Both the position numbers and the translations under genes were made by a program. The notes beneath the pieces were generated by a model that ran no database searches, was not told the origin of the DNA, and saw only the letters and a program-made list of their open reading frames with translations. DNA of 64,000 nt, taken from the NCBI GenBank assembly GCA_002269645.1, contig NIVC01002274.1:62001-126000 (forward strand), written 5' to 3'. Below, piece after piece: positions 6,331 through 42,100 of the stretch; position 1 is the first letter of the stretch, and each line of letters begins with the position of its first letter. This DNA is from Macrostomum lignano (taxonomy: Eukaryota).

Positions 6331-7588
6331 TCCCAGATAGTTTCACCTTCCCAGATTAGCACTACTTCTCCAGATTCGCACCACTCCGCAAAAATTCGCA
6401 CCGCTACTTCCTCCAGATTAGCCCCAATCTCCCAGATTAGCCCCCACTCCTTTATATTAGCCCCGCTCCCTTAGATTAGCACCACTCCCAAACTGCTAAA
6501 AGGTGACTACTATTATCGCCTCAGAAGTTTAAAGTTAAACCCTCCCCAGAAATTGGCAGTTATCCCCACAACAACCTGAAATTATCCCTTCTAATTCCGC
6601 AAAACAGACTGCAGTCATACAACTCATTTGCACTCTACAAATTTTATTATTATTATTCATTTATCCCTCAGGGACCCAGAATTGTCCCTTCTGCAAGCCA
6701 CAATTATTCACAGTTAGATATCCTCCTCAGAAGTCTGCCATTATTATCCTAGCAGTCTGCAGCTATCCCCTCGGCAGTTTGCAGCTTATACGCTCATAAG
6801 TCTCGAGAAACTAACCAACGTCAGCAGTTTGCAGTTTGTCCCCACTACGTATCGCGCCAATTCTGCAGGGTTTTTAGGCAGATTTGACGCAAAAAACGCA
6901 AATTATACTACTATCTGAAAATGAAGTAAGTAGTATACAAAAACGCTATCCTAAGCGTGATATGGCAATATGTAGTCGTAATAACCATGTGCTCATATTA
7001 ATTCCATGTACATTAATCCCTATCTATCTCAAATTGGATATGTACATTAATCCATATCCCAAATTGTCTATCCCCCAATTCTACATGTACACTCACATTA
7101 ATCTACAGTGTCATCCCCAGCGCGCGCGCACCAAAAATACACGTACAATACTACATGTACACAGAGGTGAGAATTACTAATCTCATCTACTACCAAATGA
7201 GTCAACTAACCGTGTAGCGCACATCATGTATAAGTATTTACAATGAAGATATATTTACATTTAATCAGTAGCATATTACAGGAATCGAGACATGTACACC
7301 ATCACCAGCAAATAGAATATACAGAAAATTTTACATTGTTTTTCAATAATTTTCTCTTCATAAATGATTTTAAACAGGTTTGACATGCAAAATATGTACA
7401 ATAGATTTTTACATTGGCAATTTCGCCACACACAATACAAAAATGCTCTATGTACATGAATTATATATACAGCAAATAGATTCTGATAAATACAGCAGTA
7501 TTACAATGCAAATTATGTACAATAAATAGATTTTACTAATTTAATATTGCAAAATGTACATTGAATTGTCAGTCACAACTAGAATACA

Positions 7589-8329
7589 TTATTTATAGCC
7601 ATAAGGCCGGCTGCAGGCCCCGTACACGCGCTTCGTCAGGACGCGCTGAAACGTCTTGTCCATGGTGATCGTGTGTATGGTACAAGACGCCTTGTCGCGC
7701 CTGAACTGAAGCTGCGGCAGCTGCAGGGAGCCGCCGTGTAGTAGGGCGCTGCGCAGGTCGTCGCTGCGCTCCCGAATCTCCGGAGTCAGCCGGATGCCCT
7801 TGCATTTCAGGACCTGACTCCGGACACCGGCCGCATCCTCGACAATGTAAGTGTAGAGCTTGGGCCCTCCACTTACAAAGTCGGTCATCCGGCTGCCTGC
7901 GGGCACCTCGTCGGTCCACATTCCGAGGCTCGTGCCATGGGGCGGCTCCCATTGGCCCTCGGAATGCCGGTAAACGACCCTGGGTGTGGGGGGAGAGAGA
8001 TAATTACTTCCACATGCCAACTATTCAATTCTAAAAGAATTTTTCCAATGCAATACTTACGAGTCAGTGTCGCAGTAAATGGCCCGTTCGCCGAGCCCCT
8101 CCAAGGCCTCGTACAGGCGCAGCCGGGCCTGCGTGGTTGTAAAGACTCCGATTGGCACATTGGAGTACCTGAATGGCCGCTGATTAAAGTAACGGTGCCG
8201 GTACTCTAGCAGCATAAACTCGCTGCCAATCGGCTCGCAGGCCTTGACTTTGAGGTTGGGGTCGGTCAGCCGGGCGAGCCAGTCCTCGTAGCTGGATACA
8301 ATTTCGGTCGATGTCAGGTCGTCACGCAT
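7589..8329 (-). CDS. Protein-primed family B DNA polymerase (Polinton/adintovirus type), C-terminal 219 aa; exons 8329-8061 and 7979-7589
   Basis: Motifs GVFTTTQARLRLYEAL, YCDTDS|VVY, LGMWTDE, DFVSGGPKLY, KCKG. Mirror image of the right-arm copy. Confidence 0.85.
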
Positions 8330-8954
8330 ATCCTCACCCCTCGAAGCCCCTATACTGAATGTTGAATCACCCTTTAACTCGGACCATAGTCAAATTCAAC
8401 CCTGTTCGAAAACAGCCACCCCTCCGATGTTTACCAGACACAGCGCAGACCCCATAACAAATTGAGCTAAATTTTAACACTCGCCCCTGTTTTCTCTGTC
8501 CCCCCTTCTAAATGCCAAGGAATTTCGACCCTCTCTCCATTTTCAGTGTACAGACAGATCTTTCCACAGCACAGACCATATATTAAACTTCAAAACCCCT
8601 CTCTTCTCCGATTACGTCATCCATGCCGCCCCAGTTAGCAAGAAACCAACTTTTAATGCACACATCAACCCCGCGAGCAAATCCGAGTCCGCCAACCTCT
8701 ACCTGCATTGACAAACCCCAGCTGCATTTGTAAATGTACACAGCCTATGAATCAGTGTCTCCACCGCATGCAATTCTGATTTACTTGATTCTAAACTTTG
8801 TAAGTTGTATAAGTCACCCTTGCGTTATACTAGAAGTAGTGAAGTCCACATATTTAAATACGTGAGGCTATTCAATTCTGCCTCTCCGCCTCCCCTACCT
8901 TCTCACTTCAAGCTTTCAGACTTGGTCTTTGAGACGGTCGGTTTAATCTGTTAG

Positions 8955-9960
8955 AAGCAGGAATGAATCATGCACTGACCTCTCCATACAAAGTAAAGTT
9001 GGAATTTCAGACAAGAAATTTGGTTATTTTAAAAGCTAAATGACTAGAAATGCACATTTTTTTCATTAAAATGCAGCTTTCTACAGTTTTTTTACGATTT
9101 TAACCTTAAAATGCAGACTTTGTTGATCAAAATCAGTAGTTTCATCACTAGAAACCATACTTTCAACAACTAATTTGTCCAAATATCGCTTTCAACTTGA
9201 CCTTAGACAGCGTTTAAGCAGGAATGAACCCCCCACGAACATACACAAGCTAGCCCAAAATCAGCCAAAGACATGGCTATTGAAGCCTAAATTGCTAGAA
9301 ATGAGCATTTTTTCCTAAGAAATACAATTTTTCACAGTTTTTACGCATTTTTTACGTTAAAATGCAGCCTTTATTGATCAAAATCAGTAGTTTCATCACT
9401 AAAAACCGCAATTTTAACACAAAATTATCACAAATGCTACTTCTGGAACTCTGAGACAGCTTTGAGCAGGAATTATAATCGCACACGGATTACCCGAGCC
9501 AGTCCAATATTCCACTGAAGCCAGGGTTTTTTTTAAAGCTGAATTGTTAGAATTGCTCATTCTTTCGTTTAATAAATGACAATTTTCACAGTTTTATTAT
9601 TTTCTAACGTTAAAATGCGAAATGTATTGGTCAAACTTAGTAGTTTCATCCCAAAAGCCATAATTTCAACCGCTAATTTGTCCAAATGCTGATTTCAAAG
9701 TTGGCAAGAGACAGCTTTCGAGCAGGAATGAGTCACACACTGATCTCCATATGCACACCCCGGCCCAAGTTGGAATTCCACCCAAGACATTTTCATTGAA
9801 AGCTAAATTACTAGAAATTGCACATTTTCGTTTTAAAAAGGTCAATTTTCACAGTTTTTACTCTTTTTAACGTTAAAATGCTGACTTTATTGAACAAAAT
9901 TAATCACTTCATCAGCAGAAACCATAATTTTTACAACTTAATGCTGTTTCATCATTCAAA
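8955..9960. repeat. Four diverged ~255-bp direct repeats inside the inverted arm (mirrored at ~11055-12060)
   Basis: GCAGGAAT at ~8958, 9218, 9467 and 9723, each followed by AAAGCT.AAT..CTAGAA, TTTT.ACAGTTTT and AGTAGTTTCATC-type motifs. Confidence 0.8.
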
Positions 9961-12686
9961 TGTATGTATTTGGTACGTGTAATACCCCTCAAGAAGTCAG
10001 GGAAGGGATTATTCTTGAATATAGGGTTAAAACGTAAAGTTTGCTATAAACCTAGCTATAATAATTTTAACATATACAGTCTGCGAAGCGGCCCGTTGAT
10101 TTCGATTGACATTTAAACTGTCCCTCCCAGACCTCTCTCTCTCCTTCTGCACCCACCGAGAAAAGTGACTCATGCGGCAATCAGCTGGACAGGTTTTATT
10201 ACTGAATTGGCAAAACAGCCAACACCCAATGGTCATATTAGACTCGTCTTCACAGCACAGACCCATGTAGAACAGAACCACTCGTCCCTGTCTCTCTGAC
10301 CTTACCATTTCTAACTGTCAAGGAATTCCGACCCTCCCTCTCCAATTTCAGTGTACAAACAGATATTTTCACAGCACAGACTCATATATTGAGCCTCCTC
10401 CAACCAAAACCCTATCTTGATTACGTCATCCACCTCCCCCATAGAAGCAGTTAGCAAGAAACAAAATTTTTCGATGCACATATGAACACTGTGAACCATG
10501 CAAAATAGCACATCTACGGGTCGATTTTGATTGACAATTTAATACCTTTTGTTGATGCTGCTGTGTACAGTAGTCTTATTTCCGAAGCTCCTAGCAGTCA
10601 TCTTTTAGATGTGGTGAATCAGTGTTGTTTTTGCCAACTTTACATCTTGATTCATCCTCCAAATTCTTCAACTCTGACCATATTCAATAATTTAACCCAT
10701 GCAAGTAGATTTGCCAATTCGCCAAATTAGCCAATACGAATGGGGCCAGAGGACCCACCCAAATCGAGCCCTTGTCTCTCTCAGGCCTCTCTCTCCTACA
10801 CATACCCCAGAAAAGTGACTCATGAGGCAATCAGTTTAACAGGTTCAGTATACTGAATTGGCAAAACAGCAAACACCCAATGGTCAATGGACTCGTCTTC
10901 GCAGCACAGACCATTTTGAATAAAGCCAAAACACACATATACCCCTATTCTCTGACCTGTGTTACGCATGTGTTACGCATGTCCTGTGTGCTGTATTCAA
11001 GAATAATCCCTTCCCTGACTTCTTGAGGGGTATTACACGTACCAAATACATACATTTGAATGATGAAACAGCATTAAGTTGTAAAAATTATGGTTTCTGC
11101 TGATGAAGTGATTAATTTTGTTCAATAAAGTCAGCATTTTAACGTTAAAAAGAGTAAAAACTGTGAAAATTGACCTTTTTAAAACGAAAATGTGCAATTT
11201 CTAGTAATTTAGCTTTCAATGAAAATGTCTTGGGTGGAATTCCAACTTGGGCCGGGGTGTGCATATGGAGATCAGTGTGTGACTCATTCCTGCTCGAAAG
11301 CTGTCTCTTGCCAACTTTGAAATCAGCATTTGGACAAATTAGCGGTTGAAATTATGGCTTTTGGGATGAAACTACTAAGTTTGACCAATACATTTCGCAT
11401 TTTAACGTTAGAAAATAATAAAACTGTGAAAATTGTCATTTATTAAACGAAAGAATGAGCAATTCTAACAATTCAGCTTTAAAAAAAACCCTGGCTTCAG
11501 TGGAATATTGGACTGGCTCGGGTAATCCGTGTGCGATTATAATTCCTGCTCAAAGCTGTCTCAGAGTTCCAGAAGTAGCATTTGTGATAATTTTGTGTTA
11601 AAATTGCGGTTTTTAGTGATGAAACTACTGATTTTGATCAATAAAGGCTGCATTTTAACGTAAAAAATGCGTAAAAACTGTGAAAAATTGTATTTCTTAG
11701 GAAAAAATGCTCATTTCTAGCAATTTAGGCTTCAATAGCCATGTCTTTGGCTGATTTTGGGCTAGCTTGTGTATGTTCGTGGGGGGTTCATTCCTGCTTA
11801 AACGCTGTCTAAGGTCAAGTTGAAAGCGATATTTGGACAAATTAGTTGTTGAAAGTATGGTTTCTAGTGATGAAACTACTGATTTTGATCAACAAAGTCT
11901 GCATTTTAAGGTTAAAATCGTAAAAAAACTGTAGAAAGCTGCATTTTAATGAAAAAAATGTGCATTTCTAGTCATTTAGCTTTTAAAATAACCAAATTTC
12001 TTGTCTGAAATTCCAACTTTACTTTGTATGGAGAGGTCAGTGCATGATTCATTCCTGCTTCTAACAGATTAAACCGACCGTCTCAAAGACCAAGTCTGAA
12101 AGCTTGAAGTGAGAAGGTAGGGGAGGCGGAGAGGCAGAATTGAATAGCCTCACGTATTTAAATATGTGGACTTCACTACTTCTAGTATAACGCAAGGGTG
12201 ACTTATACAATTTACAAAGTTTAGAATCAAGTAAATCAGAATTGCATGCGGTGGAGACACTGATTCATAGGCTGTGTACATTTACAAATGCAGCTGGGGT
12301 TTGTCAATGCAGGTAGAGGTTGGCGGACTCGGATTTGCTCGCGGGGGTTGATGTGTGCATTAAAAGTTGGTTTCTTGCTAACTGGGGCGGCATGGATGAC
12401 GTAATCGGAGAAGAGAGGGGTTTTGAAGTTTAATATATGGTCTGTGCTGTGGAAAGATCTGTCTGTACACTGAAAATGGAGAGAGGGTCGAAATTCCTTG
12501 GCATTTAGAAGGGGGGACAGAGAAAACAGGGGCGAGTGTTAAAATTTAGCTCAATTTGTTATGGGGTCTGCGCTGTGTCTGGTAAACATCGGAGGGGTGG
12601 CTGTTTTCGAACAGGGTTGAATTTGACTATGGTCCGAGTTAAAGGGTGATTCAACATTCAGTATAGGGGCTTCGAGGGGTGAGGAT

Positions 12687-13427
12687 ATGCGTGACGACCT
12701 GACATCGACCGAAATTGTATCCAGCTACGAGGACTGGCTCGCCCGGCTGACCGACCCCAACCTCAAAGTCAAGGCCTGCGAGCCGATTGGCAGCGAGTTT
12801 ATGCTGCTAGAGTACCGGCACCGTTACTTTAATCAGCGGCCATTCAGGTACTCCAATGTGCCAATCGGAGTCTTTACAACCACGCAGGCCCGGCTGCGCC
12901 TGTACGAGGCCTTGGAGGGGCTCGGCGAACGGGCCATTTACTGCGACACTGACTCGTAAGTATTGCATTGGAAAAATTCTTTTAGAATTGAATAGTTGGC
13001 ATGTGGAAGTAATTATCTCTCTCCCCCCACACCCAGGGTCGTTTACCGGCATTCCGAGGGCCAATGGGAGCCGCCCCATGGCACGAGCCTCGGAATGTGG
13101 ACCGACGAGGTGCCCGCAGGCAGCCGGATGACCGACTTTGTAAGTGGAGGGCCCAAGCTCTACACTTACATTGTCGAGGATGCGGCCGGTGTCCGGAGTC
13201 AGGTCCTGAAATGCAAGGGCATCCGGCTGACTCCGGAGATTCGGGAGCGCAGCGACGACCTGCGCAGCGCCCTACTACACGGCGGCTCCCTGCAGCTGCC
13301 GCAGCTTCAGTTCAGGCGCGACAAGGCGTCTTGTACCATACACACGATCACCATGGACAAGACGTTTCAGCGCGTCCTGACGAAACGTGTGTACGGGGCC
13401 TGCAGCAGGCCTTATGGCTATAAATAA
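12687..13427 (+). CDS. Protein-primed family B DNA polymerase C-terminal 219 aa; exons 12687-12955 and 13037-13427, 81-nt intron
   Basis: Donor TC|GTAAGT and acceptor CTCTCTCCCCCCACACCCAG|G rejoin the frame as YCDTDS-VVYRH. 269+391=660 nt, open to TAA. Lacks the exonuclease and motifs A/B. Confidence 0.85.
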
Positions 13428-15529
13428 TGTAATCCAATTATAACTGACAATTCAATGTACATTTTGCAATATTAAAATCTATTTATTATACATAATTTGC
13501 ATTGTAATACTGCTGTATTTATCAGAATCTATTTGCTGTATATAATTCAATGTACATAGAGCATTTTTGTATTGTGTGTGGCGAAATTGCCAATGTAAAA
13601 ATCTATTGTACATATTTTGCATGTCAAACCTGTTTAAAATCATTTATGAAGAGAAAATTATTGAAAAACAATGTAAAATTTTCTGTATATTCTATTTGCT
13701 GGTGATGGTGTACATGTCTCGATTCCTGTAATATGCTACTGATTAAATGTAAATATATCTTCATTGTAAATACTTATACATGATGTGCGCTACACGGTTA
13801 GTTGACTCATTTGGTAGTAGATGAGATTAGTAATTCTCCCCTCTGTGTACATGTAGTATTGTACATGTAATTTTGGTGCGCGCGCGCTGGGGATGACACT
13901 GTAGATTAATGTAAGTGTACATATAGAATTGGGGATAGACATGGACATTTGAGATAGGGATTAATGTACATGGAATTAATGTACATATCCATTTTGAGAT
14001 AGATAGGGATTATTGAACATGGAATTAATGTACAATTTGAGATAGATAGGGATTAATGTACATGGAATTAATATGAGCACATGGTTATTACGACTACATA
14101 TTGCCATATCATCTGATTAAATGTAAATATATCTTCATTGTAAATACTTATACATGATGTACGCTACACGGTTAGTTGACTCATTTGGTAGTAGATGAGA
14201 TTAGTAATTCTCACCTCTGTGTACATGTAGTATTGTACGTGTATTTTTGGTGCGCGCGCGCTGGGGATGACACTGTAGATTAATGTGAGTGTACATGTAG
14301 AATTGGGGGATAGACAATTTGGGATATGGATTAATGTACATATCCAATTTGAGATAGATGGGGATTAATGTACATGGAATTAATGTACATATATGAACAC
14401 ATGGATTATTACAACTACATATTGCCATATCACGCTTAGGATAGCGTTTTTGTATACTACTTACTTCATTTTCAGATAGTAGTATAATTTGCGTTTTTTG
14501 CGTCAAATCTGCCTAAAAACCCTGCAGAATTGGCGCGATACGTAGTGTCCCCTTTTCAGTCTGCAATGATCCCTTCAACAGTCTGCAGTTCCCCTCAGTA
14601 GTCTGCAGTCAATTCATTTGCAGTCAGCAAGTGTTTCCTTAATAATTCTCATTTATCCCCTCAGCAGTCTGCAGTTCTCTCAGCTGGCCCCTCAGTATTC
14701 TCAGCAAACTGCAATGATCTTTTCAATGATTTAAAATTTTGCTCAGCATTTACGACGGCGCACTAATCAATTTTCGATACATATTGGCAGTCTTGCGCAA
14801 CTCAGCATTTAGCAATACCTCAGCAGTTTAGCAGCATCGTCTACTGCAGTGATCCTTTCAACAATGTAGAAATTAGCTCAGCATTTTATGGCTCACTAAT
14901 CGATTTTCGATACATATCGGCAATCTTTTGCACCATTCATCATTTAGCAATACCTCAGCAGTTTAGCAGCATCATCTGCAGTTTAGTAATTTAATCCCCT
15001 GCAGTTTAGTAAAATCTACTTCTATATACCTAGATAATAACAATTAATGGGATCTTAGGATTTTACAAATCAAATCAAATTTGCTTAGTGGCTTGTGCGA
15101 GTAGCAAAAGTAAATTATTGTAATTAATAAAAAAATTTCAATTAGAATTAATCAAAAAATGTTCAAAATAGTCGAGGCAGAAGCTACTAATGAAAGAATT
15201 TATTTAATTTTAATTATCCGCTGGGGAGGCGGACTCGAACCTTGGACCTTATGCCTAGCCTAAACCTAGTCCTAGTGCCTACACTGCGGCTATTCCGCCT
15301 ACTAATCGGAGGGTGCAAAAATCAGCCATATATGCTTCGGCACTGCAGTCAAATACACAGCAGTGATAGGCTACTCAGTGTGCACAGGTTGTATGCAGGC
15401 AGAGCCAATGCACAGTTGAGTGAAATCTATAAATAGCAATTGTCTATGCAGTCAGCCAGGGTCAGAATGTACACACGCAGCCACTGAGCATTATTTTACT
15501 CTCCCTTATTGCAGCCAGTATTGAGGCGT

Positions 15530-18530: not shown

Positions 18531-19335
18531 AAATTAAATAAAGCTATAATGCTATGCTGGGGTGAAAAACTGAGACGTAAAGGCTCTCAGAGAATAACTG
18601 AGATTATGGGGGGTTTCTGAGATGTCAAAGCAAAAGTCAGAAGCTACTTCAAACTTCACGTACTTTACTCAATTTTTTATTGCATTCTTTGTTGGCTTGC
18701 CACAAGGGGTGCTGATAGAAGAAGAGTCATGTAAAAAAAAAGTAGCACTATGTATACATAAAAGAAAAGTCATGTCGAAGTTAAAAGATTCATTTGGGAA
18801 TTGCTACGATGTCAAAGCTTGGTGGAAATCGTTATAGTGCTATGATTTTTAAAGAAGGAATCAATAAAATGTCAAGGCTTAGGGGAGAAGAATTGCTGAG
18901 ATTTCAAGGCTTTAGGTTGGGTTAAAGTTAGGTTTAGGTCAGGTGTGGGTTGAGGGTTGTATTCTATCAGGTTTCAAGGTTAACAGGGGATTTTTTAGAT
19001 TTCAAGGTTTATGGGGGGCATCGCTGACCTGTCAAGGCTTACGGGGGGAATAGCTGAGATGTCAAGGCTCACGGGGGTATAAATGAGATTTCAAGGCTGA
19101 AGTCAAAAGCTATATGTAGTTTATTGAAAACTTTTTATTACATTATTTGATGACTCCTCAGGGAAGGGATCGCTGATAAAAAAGCATAATGTAAAAAAAT
19201 AAAAGAAGCTTCATGTTGAAGTTAAGAGATTCATTTGGGAATCCCTACGATGTCAAGGCTTGCAGGGAATCAATATAAATACTGCAGTAGTGCTATAATG
19301 ACTCTTAGAGAGAATTACTGAAATGTCAATGCTTT

Positions 19336-19400
19336 AGGGTTAGGCTAGGGTTAGGGTTAGGGTTAGGGTTAAGCTAGGGTTAGGCTAGGGTTAGGGTTAG
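19336..19400 (+). repeat. Short interstitial (TTAGGG)n-like tract
   Basis: About 10 TTAGGG/CTAGGG/TTAGGC hexamers inside a degenerate GAGATGTCAAGGCTT repeat region. Confidence 0.75.
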
Positions 19401-20552
19401 AAGGTTGACAGATATTTTTAGATTTCCCAGGCTTATTGGGGGCATTGCTGAGATGTCAAGGGGGGAAGTTGATATGTTAAAGCTTGTGGGGGGGGAATTA
19501 CTGACATGTCAAGGCTTACAAGGTTTGACAAGAGATTTTTTAAGATTTCAAGGATACATGTAGCTTATTAAAAAAAATGTGTGTTGCATTTCTTTGGCTC
19601 CCCAATGGGAATATAAATTTCTATTTTTCTTTTTATAAAAAGTTGTTTTTTACAAAAATCCTTAACTTGGCATTTTTTTGCTTAAACCTTTAAAGTATAG
19701 AAACCTATGAAAATATATAAAAATGTACTAAGCATTTAGGTAAACTTTGATCTTATTCCTAGATGTATTATAATATAAAGAATCTATAGCAAATTTAACT
19801 ATTCAATTGCTTACTTTCAAGCCTTAATGTAATAAAAAGCAAGCTTTTAGGCTTTATACAATTTATTGAGTTAATTATATTGTAGAAGATATATTATAGA
19901 AATGAAAATTATGAAAATGGCTTACTTAATATAAGGCATATTTAGCTATGTCAAGACAATTTATAGTTTAAAGTACCCAATTCAAAAGTTTTTGTACTAT
20001 TATTATTATATTATATGGTAAAAATCAATGTTTGTTTTTTATTATTAATGTGGCAATATGTATTTTTGAGTAAAAAATAGTCAAGCCTAGACCTAAACCC
20101 TAGTTTTTCACGTATTAAATTTGCAACTGAAGATAACAAATTAAAAGCCACGATGCCAGTAGGCATTAATAAAATGATTTAAAATTTGAAACAAAAGCAA
20201 TTTACTAGAATCAAAGAGGACCAAAAACTTATACAAGTGACCAAAAAACAAGCAACTGTCAAAAAAGAGCATCAATAAATTCAAACCAAAGAGAGAGCAA
20301 ATGCTTAACTATGTTTCCAAAGGCTTCTATGATGCTCGTACAATAGAATTTAGGAGGTTGTGTATAGCTTGTATGTGTCTCTGATCTACAAAAATTGTAG
20401 AAACTCCATATCTACATACAGATAAATAGATTTTGATAGCAGATACAATGCTTGAAACTATGAGATTGCAGGATCTATTTTTAATATAGTACTGTTGAGC
20501 CTAATATAATATTGCAGAGGAAACTGTAAATGTGACCTCGTTCGTTTTAGTC

Positions 20553-23500
20553 ATGTCAAAAGCAAATATGAAGCAATCGGTTTGGGAGCGGATCAAGGAT
20601 CAAAAGTGCCCGTCAGAGCAGGACACTAAGCTAGAGCGCGAGCGCCAGCGAAAGGAGGAGCGCGAGCGTCAGCACCAGCTGCAGCTGCAGGGGCAGCGCG
20701 ATGCCGAACGCTCGGCGAAGCAGGCGGAGGCCGTCGAGTCGATTGTCGAGCTGGTGCGCGTGGCCGCCGAGCGCCTGTCGATGCCGCTGCGTCCAGCCCA
20801 CTTGGCCCAATCCTTCGAGATCTTCTACAAGCAGCCGTTTCCGCTGGACCTGTTCGACCGCAGCTCGGCCGAGGAGGTGGCCGTCAACCTGGCGCTGTCC
20901 GGTCGGCTCGTCTTGGACTCGAAGCGGTGCCTGCGGGTCGCCAGCAACGCCATGGTCGAGTCGGCAAAGTGCAGCGCATCGGCGTCAAAGCGGCAGCTGA
21001 GTCTGCCTGCTGAGGTGAAAAAGCGGCTGCTGTGCATCGCCTACGTTTATCCCGGCCTGCCAGTTCTCCTGCTGCCCGAGAAGTACCGGGAGGAGTGAGT
21101 GCGACTAGCCTTGCCTAGTGGCATAAACTTTGCCTTGATATTTTTCTGAATTATTTTCCTCTTTTAATATTCTTTGCGCATATTTAGTATTGACGCCGCT
21201 TTCATTCGGCATTAATCTCACGCTTTCCACTCTGATTTGTAACTATCTGCGGACGCCACAGTGAAACTGCTGCTGCCTTTATCCCGCAGTTTCAACTGCC
21301 AGCTGCCCAGCTTCTCCAGCATGGGCTGCAACAATCTGTTGGATCTGCTGCGCCAAATCCCGGGCATAGTGCTGATGAAAAATCCCATTGACCCGGATCT
21401 CCGCATCGCCGTGTACGGCACGCGGCTGCCCAACCTGCCGAAGGCGCCGCCGTTTCCCGAGAACTGCGTGCCTCCCGGCTACCGGCTGCCCGTCGAGCGC
21501 ATGCGGCGGCCGCGGCAGCCCGCTGTTGGCACCGAAGTGAGCGCGCACTACCTGCTGCAGCAGCAGTACAACGTGCTGGTGCCGCTGGCCTCAAACTCGG
21601 GCCCGGGCCGCTTCTTCGTGATTCCACACGGCGAGGTGTCGAACCGCCTTGACAAGCTGATGGAGCAGCTGGACTCGGCTGAGCACCCGCCAATGCCGGA
21701 GGTGTACACCAGGCCTGATCAGCTGTGCGTGGCCATCACCAAGCAGGGCTGTCGGCGGGTGAGAATCGTCAGTCATGCTGCCGACGGCTCCGCTGACCGA
21801 CGGCTGGTGGAGGATGTCGACTACGGAGAGCTGCTGACTGTTGGCGTGTCCGACCTGCGCTGCATGCACCGGAGGTTCGCGGAGGGAGTCCCCGCCCACG
21901 CAATTCTGTGCCGACTGGCCTTTCTGATTCCGAATGGCGGAGCCGCCCAGTTTGATGAGGCCGCCGTGAAAGAGTTCCACCGAATCACTCAGGACGTGCT
22001 GCTCAAGCTGACTGTGGATCTTGAGCCCCCAGCTGATCAGGTTGGTTCCTTTGCTGTCATATTTAATCTGCAAGTTATTACATTGATTGATGGGTCTGCA
22101 ACTTTGCTCTTCAGCCGCACGCGCCCTACTCTGTGTATCTGGATGGAGAGATGGGCTCTTTCTTGGAATTTTTCAGCAGACAGTCGCTCGGACTGCTGCC
22201 GATTCAGGTGAGTGATTTATTACTGTTGTACAGGTGATTGCTGGTAGTTAAAAGCGCTTGACAATGTATAATACCGCTTCGTGCTGAAACTTCAGATTGA
22301 CTTCAAGCAGAAGGCTTTCGCACCGCTGGGCAAGGTGGACAGGCTCTGCAAGCCAGACGGCAAGAACGGTAAATAATGAGTTTTGTATTGGGCCTGTAGG
22401 CCTCAGTGGGGATTTATATTGAAACTCTGCCTACTTTTGCAAAGTCGGACAATGTTTGTCATTCCCCGGTCCCGTAGCCGCTCAATGCGAGCCCGAGGCC
22501 AGCGTGCGCACCGGCGGCCACTCCGACATCGAAGAGGTCGGCACCGATGCGGAAGCGGGCAGCAGCCGCGCCATGACGCCCGGCAGCGAAGCTGGCGATG
22601 ACCTCGACGAGAACCTGCAGGAATATAATCATAACCAAGATTATGAGCAGCAGCACTATGAACGTCAAGATTATGAGCAGCAGAACTATGAGCGTCAAGA
22701 TTATGAGCAGCAGAACTATGAGCGTCAAGATTATGAGCAGCAGGACTATGAGCGTCAAGATTATGAGCAGCAGAACTATGAGCGTCAAGATTATGAGCAG
22801 CAGGAGGACTATGAGCGTCAATATTATGAGCAGCAGGGCTATGAGCATCAGGCTGATAATGAGTGGCAGGATTATGAGCCGCAGGCCGATGATGAGCAGC
22901 ATCAGGATTATGAGCAGCAGCAGGATTTTGAGCGGCAGTGTTGTGAGCAGCCGTGTTCCGAACCAATAAGATTCCCGTCTGAAGTCGGCGATAAACTAAC
23001 CTTCAACATGAATGAAGCCCCAGGCGAAAAAAGATCATTTGCGGTCGCAAACCGGTGTAGTGATCTGACTAGACGGGTTAAAGCCACGGATTTACAGAGT
23101 AAGTATTGTGCCTGTAAAGTGGAATAATTTAAGCTTTACACTTTCTAGGATGCATAATTGCATTGCATCTTTGTCTTGTTGTTTGTGTTGTGTTTGTTTT
23201 TAATTGGAATTCGTGAGTTCCAAGTTCCCAAACGGGAAGGGGAGTTTTTGTTCCTAATACGTAGTTAAGCTTTAAGCAGTATGGTACTGCTCACGTTCGG
23301 ATTGCTTATGACTAAATCTAATTGACTATGCTTTGGACTTCAACCAGTCTCATGAAATATATGTTATTACTAGTGGAAATGAATACGAACAGGGCAACTT
23401 AGTTTAGGTTAGGACAGGAGATGTCAGATGGGCACAATGCCGAAAGTACAGGTAGTTTATGATAAAAATCTGATTATCAATCGAAATGAGAGTCGCAAAG

Positions 23501-27260: not shown

Positions 27261-27435
27261 TAAATATGTTTCGTCTCGGAGTATGTATGCACTGTCTTTG
27301 CCTCATTGTGGTATACTTACGAGCTCATATGTAGGTACACCTCTAGCCACGCTGCTAGCAACATTCAATAGGTTTGCTAAGTCAGTGGGCTAGCTTAGTT
27401 TAGAGTAGAAATTGGTTCAATGACCTGCTGCCTTC

Positions 27436-29844
27436 ATGCTGTCCCTGCCGAATCCCAGCTCCAGCGCGGGCCAGTCGGCTCGATCTCAGCTGTGGCGGAC
27501 TCAGCCATTGTCTGAGCAGCAGAGGAACAAGAAAAAGCAGCAGCAAGGTCTGTCCGGCTTCAATCGCGTCCAAGCCGTCTCGGCCGACTTTGTCGCCGAT
27601 GTCGGGGATCTGCCGCCTCTGCTTAACGACATCCTGTTGCGCGCCGTTTTCGGCGAACCCGCAACTGGCCTGCGCGTCCCCTTGTGGCTGTTGCGCCAGG
27701 CCGGGCCGCACCTGCCCGAATACCGGCAGCTGCTGGCGCACCACGGTCACGCCGAGCTGTGCCGAAATCCTGAGCTGGCCAGCGAGCTGACTGTTCTACC
27801 CTTGACTCGTTGCGAACTTGACGCGGCGCCAATCTTTACAGACATCATACTGGTACCAATAGCTTTGGGATTAGTTGCTAAGCAAAGCGTCGGCGGTGTC
27901 AATCAACGCGCCGGTCTGATTGTGTCGGAGCCGCTGACCGGCCCGGCAGACAGAGCGGCATTGGCGCTGGAATTCGGGGCCGCTCGTGGCCGGCTGCACT
28001 GCGTACTGGAGGCGCTTAATCTGGCCAGGCGTAGGTTAATGGGCCGCGCCGTCCTGCTGGGCCTGGCTGGAGCGCCATGGACGCTGCTGGCTCGCATGGC
28101 TGGCGACCCCGGGCTGGCCGTCGGGTGGCTCTACAGTCAGCCAGAAGCGTGCGAGAGGCTCTTAGACAAGCTGACTGGCCTGCTGGTTGACTTTCTAGTT
28201 GATCAGGTGGCTGCCGGAGCTCAGGTAAAGCGGCTGGAAGCTAAATGGATAATGGTGAATTACATATAAAATGAATGGGTTACTGTGGATTCTCACCGAT
28301 TGTGGAGGACTGGGTAACTCAGGCTATTCATCATACATGCGCAACTTTGGAAATCACTCGGCCGTTTCTATTGGCAACACACACATGTAAGTCACCATTG
28401 ACTGAGAGTCACGTGACTACTATTCCGTCCAATAGCGACTTACATGAGTGTGTTGCCAATAGAAACGGCCGGGTGAATCCCTAGGTTGCGCCCAAGCATG
28501 CTATTCATATTTTACACTGGATGAATTCAATGAATGGTGCAGTCGTGCAGATGGGACTTAGCAGATAGGACTGAGTACATGTAGATGGGATTAGGCAGAT
28601 AGGACTGAGTAGATGGGATTAGGGCAGATGGAACTGAGCAGATGAAACTGAGCAGATGGGATTAGGCAGGTGGAACTGAGCAGATGGGATTAGGGCAGAT
28701 GGAACTGAGCAGATGGGATTAGGCAGATGGAACTGAGCAGATGGGATTAGGCAGATGGAACTGAGCAGATGGAACTGAGCAGATGGGATTAGGCAGATGG
28801 AACTGAGCAGATGGAAATGAGCAGATGGGATTAGGCAGGTGGAACTGAGCAGATGGGATTAGGGCAGATGGAACTGAGCAGATGGGATTAGGCAGATGGA
28901 ACTGAGCAGATGGAACTGAGCAGATGGGATTAGGCAGATGGAACTGAGCAGATGGAACTGAGCAGATGGGATTAGGCAGATGGAACTGAGCAGATGGAAC
29001 TGAGCAGATGGGATTAGGCAGATGGAACTGAGCAGATGGAACTGAGCAGGTGGGATTAGGCAGGTGGAACTGAGCAGATGGGATTAGGCAGATGGGACTG
29101 AGTAGATGGGATTGGGCAGATGGAACTGAGCAGATGGGATTAGGCAGATGGGACTGAGTAGATGGGATTAGGCAGATGGAACTGAGCAGATGGGATTAGG
29201 CAGATGGGACTGAGCAGATGGGATTAGGCAGATGGGACTGAGCTAATGTGATTAGGTAGATGGGACTGAGCAGATGGGATTAGGCAGATGGAACTGAGCA
29301 GATGGGATTAGGCAGATGGAACTGGGCGGACGCGCAATCGTGCTTCATGCCAATGTCGCGCTATCCCATGCCGCAGGCTCTGCAGGTGGTTGAGCCGTTG
29401 GCGGGCCGCCTGTCGCCAAACCTGTTCTGCCAGTTCGCGTTGCCCAGACTGCGCCGGCTGGCGTCGGAGGTTCGCGCCCGGATTGGACCAGGCGTGCCGC
29501 TGATTTTGTTTGCTCCCTCCTGCCACAGCGTTCTGGAGGAGCTCGCGTGTAGCGGCTTCGACGTGCTGGGCGTTGACCACACGATGCGGCCGGAGCACTG
29601 CCGTCGGGTGGCCGCCGCGGCAGGGGTTGCCGTCCAGGGCAACCTCGACCCGGCCCTGCTGGCCTATGCGCCCAGCGAGGTGCTGCGCGATCACGTCAGA
29701 CGGATGCTGCGCGCTTTCGGCGCCAAGCGCTACGTGTGCAACGTTGGCGCCGGCCTGCTGCCGGAGACTCCGCCTGAGCGGCTGGCCGAGCTGACACGGC
29801 TGGTGCGCCTTCTGGTTGAGGATTTGAGCTCGAAGAACGAGTAG
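27436..29844 (+). CDS. UROD: Uroporphyrinogen decarboxylase-like protein, divergent, 418 aa; exons 27436-28224 and 29377-29844
   Basis: NDILLRAVFGE, PLWLLRQAG, DAAPIFTDI, LAGAPWTL, QVAAGAQ|ALQVVE, GFDVLGVD, AVQGNLDP, YVCNVGAG follow the UROD/HemE motif order. Phase-0 intron CAG|GTAAAG ... CCGCAG|GCT. Confidence 0.9.
28349..28480. repeat. ~132-bp foldback (~50-bp arms, central AGTCACGTGACT palindrome) in the UROD intron
   Basis: CGGCCGTTTCTATTGGCAACACACACATGTAAGTC pairs with GACTTACATGAGTGTGTTGCCAATAGAAACGGCCG. Confidence 0.75.
28545..29325. repeat. 14-bp two-variant minisatellite (GCAGATGGGATTAG / GCAGATGGAACTGA) in the UROD intron
   Basis: Read directly. Confidence 0.95.
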
Positions 29845-31212: not shown

Positions 31213-34200
31213 ATGGAGCAGGTGGCCGTCAATCTGCGCCTATGCATGCGCGTTCCAAATTTAAAACGTCAGCAAAATGTCACTTGCGCGGCCCTTGCCA
31301 GCGAGTACGCTCGCTGCGTTGGTCCGTTGCGATGGCAACAGTTTAATTTTAAATCATTGGAAGACTTGCTAGACTCCATTGACGGCATGCAGGTGTACGA
31401 ATGGCAAGGAGAGTCCTGCGTCCGACTGGTCCTCACTAACCGTAAGCGGCGTATTGTACTGTGAAGCAGTTAGTTGCTGCATCTGGTGACGATTCGGTTA
31501 AGTGACTAATCTAGTGACTTCGAGTGACGCATCTAGTGGCACATTCAGTGACTAATCTGGTGACTTCGAGTGACGCATCTAGTGGCACATTCAGTGACTA
31601 ATCTGGTGACTTCTAGTGATGCATCTAGTGGCACATTCAGTGACTAAACTAGAGACTTTCAGTGACGCATCTAGTGGCACATTCAGTGACTAATCTGGTG
31701 ACTTCCAGTGATGCATCTAGTGGCAAATTCAGTGACTAATCTGGTGACTTCCAGTGACGCTTCTAGAGGCACATTCAGTGACTAATCTGGTGACTTCCAG
31801 TGATGCATCTAGTGGCAAATTCAGTGACTAATCTGGTGACTTCCAGTGACGCTTCTAGAGGCACATTCAGTGACTAATCTGGTGACTTCAAGTGATGCAT
31901 CTAGTGGCACATTCAGTGACTAATCTGGTGACTTCCAGTGACGCTTCTAGTGGCACATTCAGTGACTAATCTGGTGACTTCCAGTGACGCATCTAGTGGC
32001 ACATTCAGTGACTAATCTGGTGACTTCCAGTGACGCTTCTAGTGGCACATTCAGTGACTAATCTGGTGACTTCCAGTGACGCATCTAGTGGCACATTCAG
32101 TTCAGTGACTAATCTGGTGATTTCAGTGACGCATCTAGTGACACTCAGTGACTAATCTGGTGACTTCTAGTGACGCATCTAGTGGCACATTCAGTTCAGT
32201 GACTAATCTGGTGACTTCAGTGACGCATCTAGTGACACTCAGTGACTAATCTGGTGACTTCAAGTGATGCATATACATGTAGTGACACTCCGGACTAATC
32301 TGGTGACGATTCGGTTGAGTGACTAATCTGGTGACTTTAGTGACGCATCTAGTGACACTCAGTGACTAATCTAGTGACTTCTAGTGATGCATCTAGTGGC
32401 ACATTCAGTGACTAATCTGGTGACTTCAGTGGCGCATCTAGTGGCACATTCAGTGACTAAACTAGTGACTTCCAGTGACGCTTCTAGTGGCACATTCAGT
32501 GACTAATCTGGTGACTTCCAGTGACGCATCTAGTGGCACATCAGTTCAGTGACTAATCTGGTGATTTCAGTGACGCATCTAGCGACACTCAGTGACTAAT
32601 CTGGTGACTTCCAGTGATGCATATACATGTAGTGACACTCCGGACTAATCTGGTGACGATTCGGTTGAGTGACTAATCTGGTGACTTCAGTGACGCATCT
32701 AGTGACACTCAGTGACTAATCTGGTGACTTCCAGTGATGCATATACATGTAGTGACACTCCGGACTAATCTGGTGACGATTCGGTTGAGTGACTAATCTG
32801 GTGACTTCAGTGACGCATCTAGTGACAGTCAGTGACTAATCTAGTGACTTCCAGTGACGCATCTATTGACACATTCGGTGACTAATCTGGTGACTTCCAG
32901 TGATGCATCTAGTGACACTCAGTGACTAATCTAGTGATTCAGTAACGCATCTAGTGACACATTTAGTGACTCCCAAACTTGTACTTGCTAAGTGTCTTCA
33001 GCAGCACTTTATAATTAATGCGTACGTCGTATTTATGCTGTGGCTATAAGCCAAGCTAAGCATCACTCCCATAGAATGCCTCCCAGCAAACCGTACGTTT
33101 TTGCGGTCTAAAGGGAGCAAGCAATGCATGATAATAGAATAATAAAGATTAGAAATTGTTAAGATATTTGTCTGCATAAAATTGTTAGAATATTACTTAC
33201 GAGAGTATCTATTTGTAATAACCAACTATTTGTATTAATTTATTATTATTTAATTATTAGCTCTAGCATTGCAATTTTTTGTCCCATGCAGCAAACGAAA
33301 TAATCATAAGCGAGAAGGAACGCCAGATGAAGCGCGAGGAGCTCGAGGAGGAGCTCGAGCGTCAGCTGCAGCGCGAGCGCAAGCGCTACGAGGAGCGCGA
33401 ACGTCAACGAAGACAGAAGCGCGAGGAGGAGCGCGAGCGTCAGCGCCAGCTGCAGCTGCAAGGGCAGCGCGATGCCGAACGCTCGGCGAAGCAGGCGGAG
33501 GCCGTCGAGTCGATTGTCGAGCTGGTGCGCGTGGCCGCCGAGCGCCTGTCGATGCCGCTGCGTCCAGCCCACTTGGCCCAATCCTTCGAGATCTTCTACA
33601 AGCAGCCGTTTCCGCTGGACCTGTTCGACCGCAGCTCGGCCGAGGAGGTGGCCGTCAACCTGGCGCTGTCCGGTCGGCTCGTCTTGGACTCGAAGCGGTG
33701 CCTGCGGGTCGCCAGCAACGCCATGGTCGAGTCGGCAAAGTGCAGCGCATCGGCGTCAAAGCGGCAGCTGAGTTTGCCTGCTGAGGTGAAAAAGCGGCTG
33801 CTGTGCATCGCCTACGTTTATCCCGGCCTGCCAGTTCTCCTGCTGCCCGAGAAGTACCGGGAGGAGTGAGTGCAGATTTCTATTGCAACTCTCTGCTTTG
33901 CTATTTTTGCCGTAAGTCAAGGCGATAGTCGGCTCGCAGCCCAGTCCGCTGACCCCTGAGCACGCACATATACATACAGGCACGCACTCACACAGGGTGT
34001 TCAACTTTTTGACGCGAGATCCTTACCTTTAGTAAAATACATGCCTGTAACTGATGTCTTCAATTGCTGTTCCCGGGAAGGCATAATCTGCACCTGGGAA
34101 AGTGGTACATTTTCCTTCACAATCCATATTAAAAAGTATTGTACTGCGTCCAGCGACTTCTCCGCCACGCAGGCCCGTCAACGACTTCGTGAGCAGGTCG

Positions 34201-39133: not shown

Positions 39134-42100
39134 CGCCTAGCACCGAGCCGCCACTAGTGACTTCCTTCCAGGCAAATCTTCCTCCAGAATTCGACCGCGT
39201 TCCATGGTCTCCTATTCAAGTCTCGCATCTCGTGCAGGTCCAGACCAGCTCCTCTCTAAGGCTGCGCGTGACGGGGCACTCCATGACGTGCTCCAGCGTC
39301 TCGGCCTCCAAACCGCACCTCGTACACCAGCCCTCCTCTTTTCTACCCATACGCTTCCTGTACTCCGCCAGGTCCATAGAGTGGCCACTCCTGAATCGTC
39401 TGAAGTCAACCGCTTCCTGCCTGCTTAGGCCCTTCGGCTGGGGCGCCGCTCCCTGCTCTCCATACGTTTCCCTGCTTCTCCTGTGGCTTCTGCCGTCATC
39501 TCTGCCCAGCTTGTTCTGGATGTACTTCCAGTTGCTGCTGGCCGGCACCCCGATGCCCTCCTGGGCCCGTGTTGCTGGCCGCTTTGTCCGCTAACTCGTT
39601 TCCGGTCAAGCCGCAGTGCGCGGGCACCCAGATCAGCTTCCTCTAGCTTCCTCTAGCTTCCTCAAACCACCTTCTCTTCCTCCTCCAGCTTCCTCAGCAT
39701 TTTCCTGGCTCTGAGGGCCAATGGTTTTCTGCTCAGGCCTTTAATAGCCTGCAGGCAGCTCTGACTGTCGCTAATGATCGCGGTGCTTTCACCTTTGCTG
39801 GTGCACCCTTCGAGCCAATTTAGGCCAGCTATGACCGCATAGAGCTCCGCTTGCTTTGAGCAGGGCACTCCCGGGGCTTGATGGATGGTCGCTTCCACTT
39901 TACAAATACCCTCCGGGTCGCTCACCGTTGGCTGGCACACCACTCCACTACCTCCTCTGCCGATGCGGGCGTCGCGGAGGGCCGGGCAGCTGATCCAGTG
40001 CTTCAGGTCCTCCGGACCTTCGCCCCAATAAATGCAGTTGGTGTCAGCTGCCGGGTTGACCGTCCATCAGGCCGTAGGCCCTGAGAAGGCTGCAATGACC
40101 AGATCGCAGTCTGGCCAGAAGGACCGCCTCCTGGCAATTTTTCAGCTCGGCGCGCTTTTTTTGGCGGTTCAGCGCACTGTAGCCGAGCGCAGTCCGTGCG
40201 TGGTGAAGGGGCGGGTTGCCGAGGCACCGTTTATTCGCAGCGACCGCGCTAGCCAGAGAGAGGAGCCTGGGGCGGCGGCCAGAGTGCCGTGGCCGCTTTA
40301 TCAGCGATTTCGTTGCCGGCCAGGCCGCAGTGAACTGGGACCCATTGCAAAATGATGGTAGCGGCGTATGTGTCCGGATGCAGCAGGGTGTGGTCGAGGG
40401 TGAAGTTCGACAGCGCCGAGAGCAGCGCCCTGCTGTTGCTGCAGATCAGGGCTCGGCCTGCGAAGGGATGTAGACAGAGCCAGTCGAGGGCGAGAATGAG
40501 AGCCCGCCTTTCCTCATCGAAGCTGCAGGTCAAGGCAGCACCGCGCGCGGTGATCGTATCGATGACGGTCGGTTTGGCGGGGTCGCCGCTGGTGATCAGA
40601 CAGACCGCTCCTCCAGATTGGCAGCCCTTAGAGACGGAGCCGTCCATATACAGGACCAGGTCAGCCGCCGCTTGTCTAATGGTATTCTCCGCGTGCCACC
40701 TGGCTCGCATCGCGGCGTCAGCCTGAGAATCCGCGTCGGTAGGGGCAGCGTGAAGCGGGTGGAGGGCTGTAGACGCGCTGAGAGCAGCGGTGGAGCGCCT
40801 CCACGGGCACGGTGGAACGGCCGACAGCGGCTCGCGGGGGAAAAGTCTCCCGGCATATTTGTCAGGAGCAGCTCGGCGCGGTGACGCCAGCTACTTCTGG
40901 CCGTGCGGTGCGGGACCTGACCCTTTGCGGTGCAGCGGCAAGGGTGCGCGGCAGGCAAGCAGAGCGCCTTCTCGTACGCGGTGAGACAGAGCTGCTTGCG
41001 CATCGTGTCCGCCGTGCAGTTACCGGCTTCCAGATGCAGGGCTTCCACCGGCGTAGTGCGCAATTGACGTAACAATGCGCAGGACCTGGTTTTGAGCACG
41101 CTGGAGTCAGAAAGCTAGGGTTGCCACGATGAGGCCGTGTAGTACCTGACGTTGAAAATTAGGGCTTTGAGGGTGCACATGACGCTCTCCTTAGGCCAGC
41201 CCCATGACCTGGCCGACAGGCAGGCCAGGGTGCGGGACCGGCTGTTTACAACTCTTCACACTTCGGCGACCTGCTTGGTGCCAAAGTTGGCGGGTCACAC
41301 AGCCAGTAAATAACTTAAGTTTTATAGTTTTAAAAAACTTGTCACATAAAAATTGGCCCAGTAGTTTCAGAGATGTTATGAAACACACATAACACACACA
41401 AACAACGCGTCACTTTTATTATATTGCGATAATTTGTTACTACTAACCTGCCTACGATATGAAATTTGTTACTACTAACACATTACTACGATATGAAAAA
41501 GCGCTACGAAGTACGTAGCTCGTAACTTCCAACATAACACGTTTGTATCTGAAATTGCGCAAGCTTGACCGTTATTCACAGCCCGTTATTCACAGCCCGT
41601 TATTCACAGCCCGTTATTCACAGCCAACGCTGCATTATTTAGCTTAAATTGGACGGAGCCCCGATTGGATAATCATTTTCTGACCTCATTCCGACAGATT
41701 TAATTGCGACCTGCCCAGCTTCTCCAGCATGGGCTGCAACAATCTGTTGGATCTGCTGCGCCAAATCCCGGGCATAGTGCTGATGAAAAATCCCATTGAC
41801 CCGGATCTCCGCATCGCCGTGTACGGCACGCGGCTGCCCAACCTGCCGAAGGCGCCGCCGTTTCCCGAGAACTGCGTGCCTCCCGGCTACCGGCTGCCCG
41901 TCGAGCGCATGCGGCGGCCGCGGCAGCCCGCTGTTGGCACCGAAGTGAGCGCGCACTACCTGCTGCAGCAGCAGTACAACGTGCTGGTGCCGCTGGCCTC
42001 AAACTCGGGCCCGGGCCGCTTCTTCGTGATTCCACACGGCGAGGTGTCGAACCGTCTGGACAAGCTGATGGAGCAGCTGGACTCGGCTGAGCACCCGCCA

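Follow-up and report, generated by a model that had tools for sequence, protein, structure and literature searches.

The analysed window, a stretch of 64,000 nucleotides of Macrostomum lignano DNA, carries a palindromic element of 7.7 kb with Polinton-type ends, each arm of which contains the 3' part of a pPolB polymerase gene interrupted at catalytic motif C by a predicted spliceosomal intron. This arrangement is very probably explained by an intron that is spliced in the family to which this copy belongs and by a likely non-functional pPolB remnant that was duplicated in a palindrome, probably through template switching, the element being inserted presumably by a borrowed integrase. What makes the locus interesting is the parent lineage together with its palindromic derivatives; little importance probably attaches to the truncated frame.

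The features of the element are the following (window positions, strand, description):

6838..6843, plus strand: left copy of the 6-bp target-site duplication, GTCCCC
6844..14546, no strand: palindromic Polinton-derived element of 7,703 bp with ends ACTACG...CGTAGT (self-BLAST, ends and flanks)
6844..10024, minus strand: left arm, inverted copy of the right arm (self-BLAST)
7589..8329, minus strand: second truncated pPolB copy with its intron at 7980-8060, protein identical, 3 synonymous differences
8328..10956, no strand: left-subterminal family DNA, high copy, no coding match found, including the unpaired spacer 10025-10990
10957..10993, no strand: fold-back junction, short filler with an 11-bp tandem duplication, contig loose ends at 10957 and 10994
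10991..14546, plus strand: right arm (self-BLAST)
10991..12688, plus strand: inverted second copy of 8328-10024, joined at 12688/12689 to the 3' part of pPolB
12687..12955, plus strand: surviving part of the pPolB exon that links motifs B and C, its first 2 bases coming from the fused non-coding DNA and creating the ATG
12956..13036, plus strand: predicted spliceosomal intron of 81 nt, GT-AG, phase 2, in the Ser codon of motif C, skipped in X1 and X3
13037..13427, plus strand: last pPolB exon (palm end, thumb), up to the native stop
13428..14546, plus strand: AT-rich 3' region and terminal inverted repeat (about 14113-14546), from the right end of the parent
14547..14552, plus strand: right copy of the 6-bp target-site duplication, GTCCCC

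The intron at 12956-13036 (GTAAGT...CAG) splits the Ser codon of YCDTDS after its second base and has a GC content of 38%, as against 58-61% in the adjoining exons. Left unspliced, the frame meets a stop right at DTDS and another one within the intron; once spliced, exons of 269 and 391 nt give 219 codons plus a stop, with a GC3 of 0.75-0.76. The original prediction of an 81-nt GT-AG intron in this codon is borne out by the coordinates, the phase and the exact skip in RNA-type contigs, and the continuous, GC-rich frame of 219 amino acids expected after intron removal is recovered (GC3 about 0.75). The intron appears to be of the U2 type, its dependence on the spliceosome being suggested by its signals (GT-AG ends, pyrimidine-rich 3' end) and its size. 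A Pfam search with both window exons alone gave zero family matches; the full-length sister gene matches PF03175 (E 1e-27).

Sequencing runs were labelled RNA-type or DNA-type by guess, none of the listed runs being recorded as RNA. The exact skip from 12955 to 13037 (GT..AG) is present in the RNA-type contigs X1 and X3 and was not seen in the DNA-type runs X12 and X15. Furthermore, on a full-length copy, intron joints of 81, 77, 81 and 78 nt occur in contigs of the runs guessed to be RNA: (i) intron C is joined in X1, X2 and X5, from two studies, (ii) intron B in X2 and X5, (iii) intron A in X1, X2 and X5, and (iv) a 78-nt N-terminal intron in X1. None of these introns is joined in the DNA-type run X12. 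The long, best spliced X3 contig mismatches the window copy at no fewer than 9 places, and its loose end at 12689 agrees with the upstream sequence of a parent element; because of these differences, splicing is assigned to the family and not to the window copy. The RNA check across the junction that had been proposed with the original prediction thus yields spliced contigs for the family, whose assignment to the window copy is not possible. Spliced junctions and intron-bearing sister copies, on the lack of which that prediction was to fall, both exist.

A search of the genome DNA gave 43 matches (40 scored of 199 candidates), the full-length ones starting at about window position 12689. The fusion junction is present only in both arms of the window element among the 40 scored candidates. 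In all 8 of the non-window loci read, the sequence extends further upstream and includes motif B, motif A and a Vsr-like region. The proposed search for copies with N-terminal exons therefore succeeds, since 8/8 of these loci extend into motif B. The truncation is a rearrangement, in which the ATG of the frame results from fusion of non-coding left-subterminal DNA to the pPolB gene, and no clear microhomology was found at the fusion junction. Of the claim that a 5'-truncated pPolB shows homology from its ATG onwards, the truncation stands; the ATG is not a native start, as it marks the fusion point and the sister loci extend upstream to motif B. The original prediction overlooks the second, minus-strand copy (7589-8329) and the palindrome of 7.7 kb, flanked by a target duplication, in which both copies lie.

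The truncated product is most likely inert. Among the three fates considered in the original prediction, an inert fragment fits best: the ATG is a one-off fusion, and recent descent from a full-length gene under constraint accounts for the open, GC-rich frame, so that the open frame of the remnant requires no function of its own. One piece of a split polymerase is disfavoured by the sister copies, which hold the whole gene in a single locus, and a dominant-negative by an ATG that is a one-off fusion with non-coding subterminal DNA. Expression from the fused ATG as a repressor or dominant-negative fragment would accord with the open frame, the intact splice sites and the absence of any amino-acid difference between the arms. 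It is nevertheless very improbable: the fusion is unique to a single insertion, the near-identity of the arms extends to non-coding DNA, motifs A and B, the exonuclease and the N-terminal region are missing from the fragment, and no junction-spanning contig is among the matches listed.

The two arms differ in 3 columns between 10991 and 13384, with more differences and changes in repeat number toward the tips. A fold-back of the assembly is unlikely because the flanks differ and a direct 6-bp duplication borders the element. Inverted flanks do occur at some palindromes of the same assembly (3/34 outer-end pairs), but given the non-identical flanks of the window element, its direct duplication, the differing repeat numbers of its arms and the substitutions close to their tips, an artefact of this kind is extremely improbable. 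RNA-type contigs (label guessed) cover arm and spacer sequence of the palindrome; among the matches listed, none bridges the two junctions of the window element. This coverage, together with long, near-perfect arms bearing pPolB sequence, would suit a palindrome that acts as RNA, a read-through hairpin of about 3 kb feeding small RNAs that silence the family. However, the contigs may stem from many other copies or from DNA in the runs, and such a role is quite unlikely. Elsewhere in the window, a uroporphyrinogen decarboxylase gene lies in two parts around a 28/42/84-bp tandem array (27424-29841), duplicated segments (20505-22951, 33267-33873 and 41680-43359; 96-99%) carry a Tudor-domain ORF and a variable repeat ORF, an open 605-codon frame has weak matches to hAT/Spin-type transposase domains (52958-54772), and a short degenerate TTAGGG run is located at 19334-19400.

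The window element has numerous palindromic relatives. Its left-subterminal DNA is also the body of palindromes without pPolB, and at least 40 full-length matches to its spacer exist, at 98-100% and frequently as inverted pairs. Among 13 spacer-matching regions fetched, 10 have long inverted arms and none matches the gene panel (0/13); elements of 3.8-14.4 kb within these regions have the same ends as the family and perfect duplications. Similar palindromic derivatives exist in the second family described below. The best reading of the window element is that of one such palindromic derivative, the tips of which were replaced by the right end of a parent. An independent fold-back of the pPolB tail, of 5.96 kb, with its own duplication and with arms 99.9% identical, is found on C3085 and C4430, which probably represent a single locus assembled twice. 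At three other palindromes (C1190, C356 and C1580) the flanks are also inverted, one flank being common to C1190 and C1580; palindromes of this type may be nested or artefacts. Finally, an inverted duplication of a Polinton integrase-capsid-protease-ATPase module with 6-kb arms (98.9%) reaches the contig end at C3189:41702-55822 and is either a fold-back or an artefact.

The parents are elements of 9-10 kb in the same genome, Macrostomum lignano by protein labels. The four parents first mapped measure 9.5-13.8 kb and show 6-bp duplications as well as inverted repeats; the longest includes an unrelated 1,558-codon insertion. Among proteins, the nearest bear the label Macrostomum lignano and the next ones are at 30-38% identity. 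Terminal repeats are up to 100% identical and a perfect 6-bp duplication flanks 30 of the 34 outer-end pairs (17 further pairings are internal matches), which points to recent insertions. A profile (A1, P0001 included) compared with E. coli Vsr (E 5e-4) identifies a Vsr-like nuclease domain in the polymerase family, and the GCFYHGC motif of this region is present in sister copies. PC4-like and dUTPase genes occur in some parent copies; a left-region subtype with both genes is found on C1263, C157 and C694, and the window subtype has neither. Copies of this first family also form a nested and rearranged cluster, in both orientations, at C157:53900-90900. A second family, of 8.8-10.5 kb, has longer repeats, the ends ACTACT..AGTAGT and the same layout. 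Terminal repeats of the second family contain another ACTAC motif resembling an end, which follows GTGAAA and lies about 420-500 bp inward (C173, C41, C491, C558, C24, C1158 and C2358).

No integrase, capsid, ATPase or protease was found inside any ACT-ended element searched (14-protein panel, two resident integrases; ORF lists), whereas the same query panel finds all four in AGT-ended Polintons of the same genome. The latter measure 13-17.5 kb and have the ends AGTAG..CTACT and long, open, intronless pPolB frames. One AGT-ended Polinton (C114:460183-476982) carries TBP-like and PC4-like genes as well as a pPolB with an internal endonuclease VII (HNH) domain, and another (C393:106807-123169) has similar ORFs. 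Genome searches with PF04665 and PF00770 gave no match and are uninformative, such genes having been found in canonical Polintons by ORF scans.

For polymerases of this class, which copy from inverted ends by protein-primed strand displacement, it is established that the displaced single strand can fold back or switch template. Copying and insertion in trans are open to any product that has two correct ends. In the preferred explanation, the parents would express a predicted active pPolB from a spliced mRNA and would be copied by protein-primed strand displacement starting at the terminal repeats, and a displaced strand that folded back or switched template would yield a molecule with two correct ends. 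A single template switch could have joined left-subterminal DNA to the pPolB tail, the arm then being copied onto the other end, and an rve integrase supplied in trans would insert the palindromic molecule. The introns would have been gained once in the lineage and kept since precise loss or sliding at an invariant motif would rarely be tolerated; their placement may, as a guess, reflect gain at cut sites of homing-type nucleases.

The length of the target duplication, 6 bp, is indicative of a Polinton rve integrase. Polinton-type integrases have at least 115 matches in the genome, and those examined belong to AGT-ended or unassigned elements. A canonical Polinton integrase may not fit the ends ACTAC..GTAGT because canonical ends are AGTAG..CTACT. 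No ACT-ended donor of integrase or capsid was found in 20 stretches chosen for end similarity or in the surroundings of 21 of the 73 capsid-domain hits. A two-part Polinton, with the parents as one component and integrase and capsid coming from a second element that bears the same ends, would account for insertions that are recent and clean although the ends are unlike those of canonical Polintons. As the partner did not appear in the 20 end-chosen stretches or around the 21/73 capsid hits, this arrangement is possible at somewhat less than even chances. It alters the source of the integrase and not the interpretation of the window copy as a pPolB remnant in a palindromic derivative.

Three introns lie in polymerase motifs, each at a codon common to both families: (i) the motif A intron, DV|VSLYP, in phase 0, (ii) the motif B intron, in the Ser of KxxLNS, in phase 2, and (iii) the motif C intron, in the Ser of DTDS, in phase 2. 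Both families have at least 2 further introns near the N-terminus, giving a total of five or more, 4 of which are joined in RNA-type contigs. In 28 parsed rows, intron C measures 69-95 nt and intron B 67-82 nt; the exon between them is of 285 nt in 16/16 parsed rows of the first family. The intron ends, compared by eye, have nothing in common beyond the splice signals. Between the window and 12 unshifted rows of the first family, dS is 0.10-0.22 and dN 0.010-0.024, a range that leaves out 5 frameshifted or degraded rows (C4430+, C3085+, C157-, C1486 and C89). Between the two families, dS exceeds 1.5, i.e. synonymous sites are saturated, and dN is about 0.25. The full pPolB is under purifying selection, and the introns are old because they are common to two families with a dS above 1.5, which fits the long residence under host splicing that had been proposed for the window intron.

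Among 67 homologues, sites A, B and C rank within the top 1.7%, 4.2% and 10.4% of windows for conservation, and the two N-terminal intron sites lie outside the top windows. If five sites are drawn at random, the three best reach this conservation with a probability of 0.006; the probability of one intron in each motif is about 1e-5, for motifs chosen after the data were seen; mean conservation across all five sites is not significant (P 0.11). This non-random placement and the Vsr-like nuclease domain of the polymerase family could suggest that the motif introns divide a short DNA word and thereby keep a site-specific nuclease from attacking the gene, or that they serve as a regulated splicing switch. 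Such a protective or regulatory role is unlikely: in 4 elements, no 4-6-mer is common to the three junctions or consistently depleted across them, and GGNCC is frequent (24-32 sites per element).

With the exon from motif A to motif B as query, 52 proteins were retrieved. Two of them (P0121 and P0122, 58-68% identical) begin at SLYP and end at KIFLNS, the exact exon limits; P0125, P0126 and P0152 have intron-like leaders directly before SLYP, and the motif B Ser is where P0125, P0126 and P0136 break. A quick tree joins P0121 and P0122 to both families (SH-aLRT 95) and places the closest uninterrupted relative, P0027, as sister of the intron clade (SH-aLRT 99); the other fragment proteins fall elsewhere on poorly resolved branches. 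These fragments hint at repeated intron gain at the motifs, as read from proteins among which the length filter favours fragments and contig ends can mimic exon limits. With P0027 as query, metagenomes yielded a single locus, a Vsr gene that is unrelated and lies in a giant-virus-like contig. A scan of viral contigs gave 23 loci; no motif intron was found in the 6 inspected, L210, L214, L216, L226 and L232 being uninterrupted across the motifs seen, and the exact pattern of the motif C donor had 0 matches in viral contigs. Three large contigs filed as viral (L211-L213) encode a Polinton-type pPolB, that of L211, which was inspected, breaking off shortly after motif B.

In a broader reading, the parents would form an animal Polinton lineage that has dispensed with integrase and capsid, whose polymerase depends on host splicing at precisely the three catalytic motifs and whose snap-back palindromes are reinserted. 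Introns at these motifs would have been gained repeatedly in distant lineages by a targeted route, for instance repair of homing-nuclease cuts. This reading is rather doubtful; if true, it would make site-directed gain of spliceosomal introns tractable for study and would explain where giant foldback elements come from.

Compared with known systems, the parents share with Polintons/Mavericks the pPolB (PF03175), the terminal inverted repeats, the 6-bp duplication and, in some copies, PC4-like and dUTPase genes. Animal Polintons/Mavericks are described, in the available portions of PMC8097293, PMC5718144 and 10.1101/2022.07.12.499685, as elements of 15-20 kb with integrase, capsid, ATPase and protease; in excerpts of the same sources, the ORFs of intact Mavericks from vertebrates lack introns and the ends are (AG)n or (AGT)n (PMC8097293), and nematode Mavericks have intronless core genes, with introns in cargo genes (10.1101/2022.07.12.499685). 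Unlike the elements so described, the parents are of 9-10 kb, centred on an intron-split pPolB and bordered by ACTAC..GTAGT, and the window copy is a 7.7-kb palindrome. The parent lineage thus does not consist of autonomous Polintons: integrase, capsid, ATPase and protease were not found in it, its pPolB is not intronless and its ends are not (AG)n or (AGT)n.

The Vsr-like nuclease region inside the polymerase recalls the VSR-type pPolB2 of marine nematode and mollusc Polintons, as the accessible sections of PMC10748475 present it, a likeness of domain and motif. That survey, in the same sections, covers only integrase-linked pPolBs, and the two places where it mentions 'intron' deal with something other than spliceosomal introns in pPolB. 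Spliceosomal introns within Polinton-like elements are also found in dinoflagellate Polinton-like viruses, where, in the portion available of PMC12166617, introners are copies of active intron-making transposons; the introns of the window family differ from these in being old, conserved in position and located at three polymerase motifs. Protist Polinton-like elements are reported to have group I introns, in part of PMC12220804. Insertion at the most conserved parts of an essential enzyme is a trait of inteins and group I introns, whereas spliceosomal introns have no preference for conserved sites, according to excerpts of PMC2814812. The present introns are, unlike inteins and group I introns, GT-AG introns of 67-144 nt, too short to encode an endonuclease. 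Three introns in three catalytic motifs, together with the hints of a similar placement in distant relatives, constitute a testable case of targeted gain because spliceosomal introns are reported without preference for conserved sites.

No report was found in the literature of motif-placed spliceosomal introns in pPolB, nor of integrase-less pPolB elements in Macrostomum lignano or of palindromic Polinton derivatives, although Repbase and supplements could hold these families. The RNA-type splice junctions and the tie between giant palindromes and the ends ACTAC..GTAGT are new. Polinton core genes are treated as intronless, and spliced, integrase-less lineages are overlooked because surveys demand intact ORFs or a linked integrase.

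Foldback transposons and the snap-back defective genomes of linear DNA viruses have long inverted arms, are non-autonomous and depend on a helper. The window element differs from both in that its arms derive from Polinton-type ends and carry a polymerase remnant, with a 6-bp duplication. Palindromic derivatives of this kind connect the large non-coding foldback insertions of the genome to Polinton-type ends.
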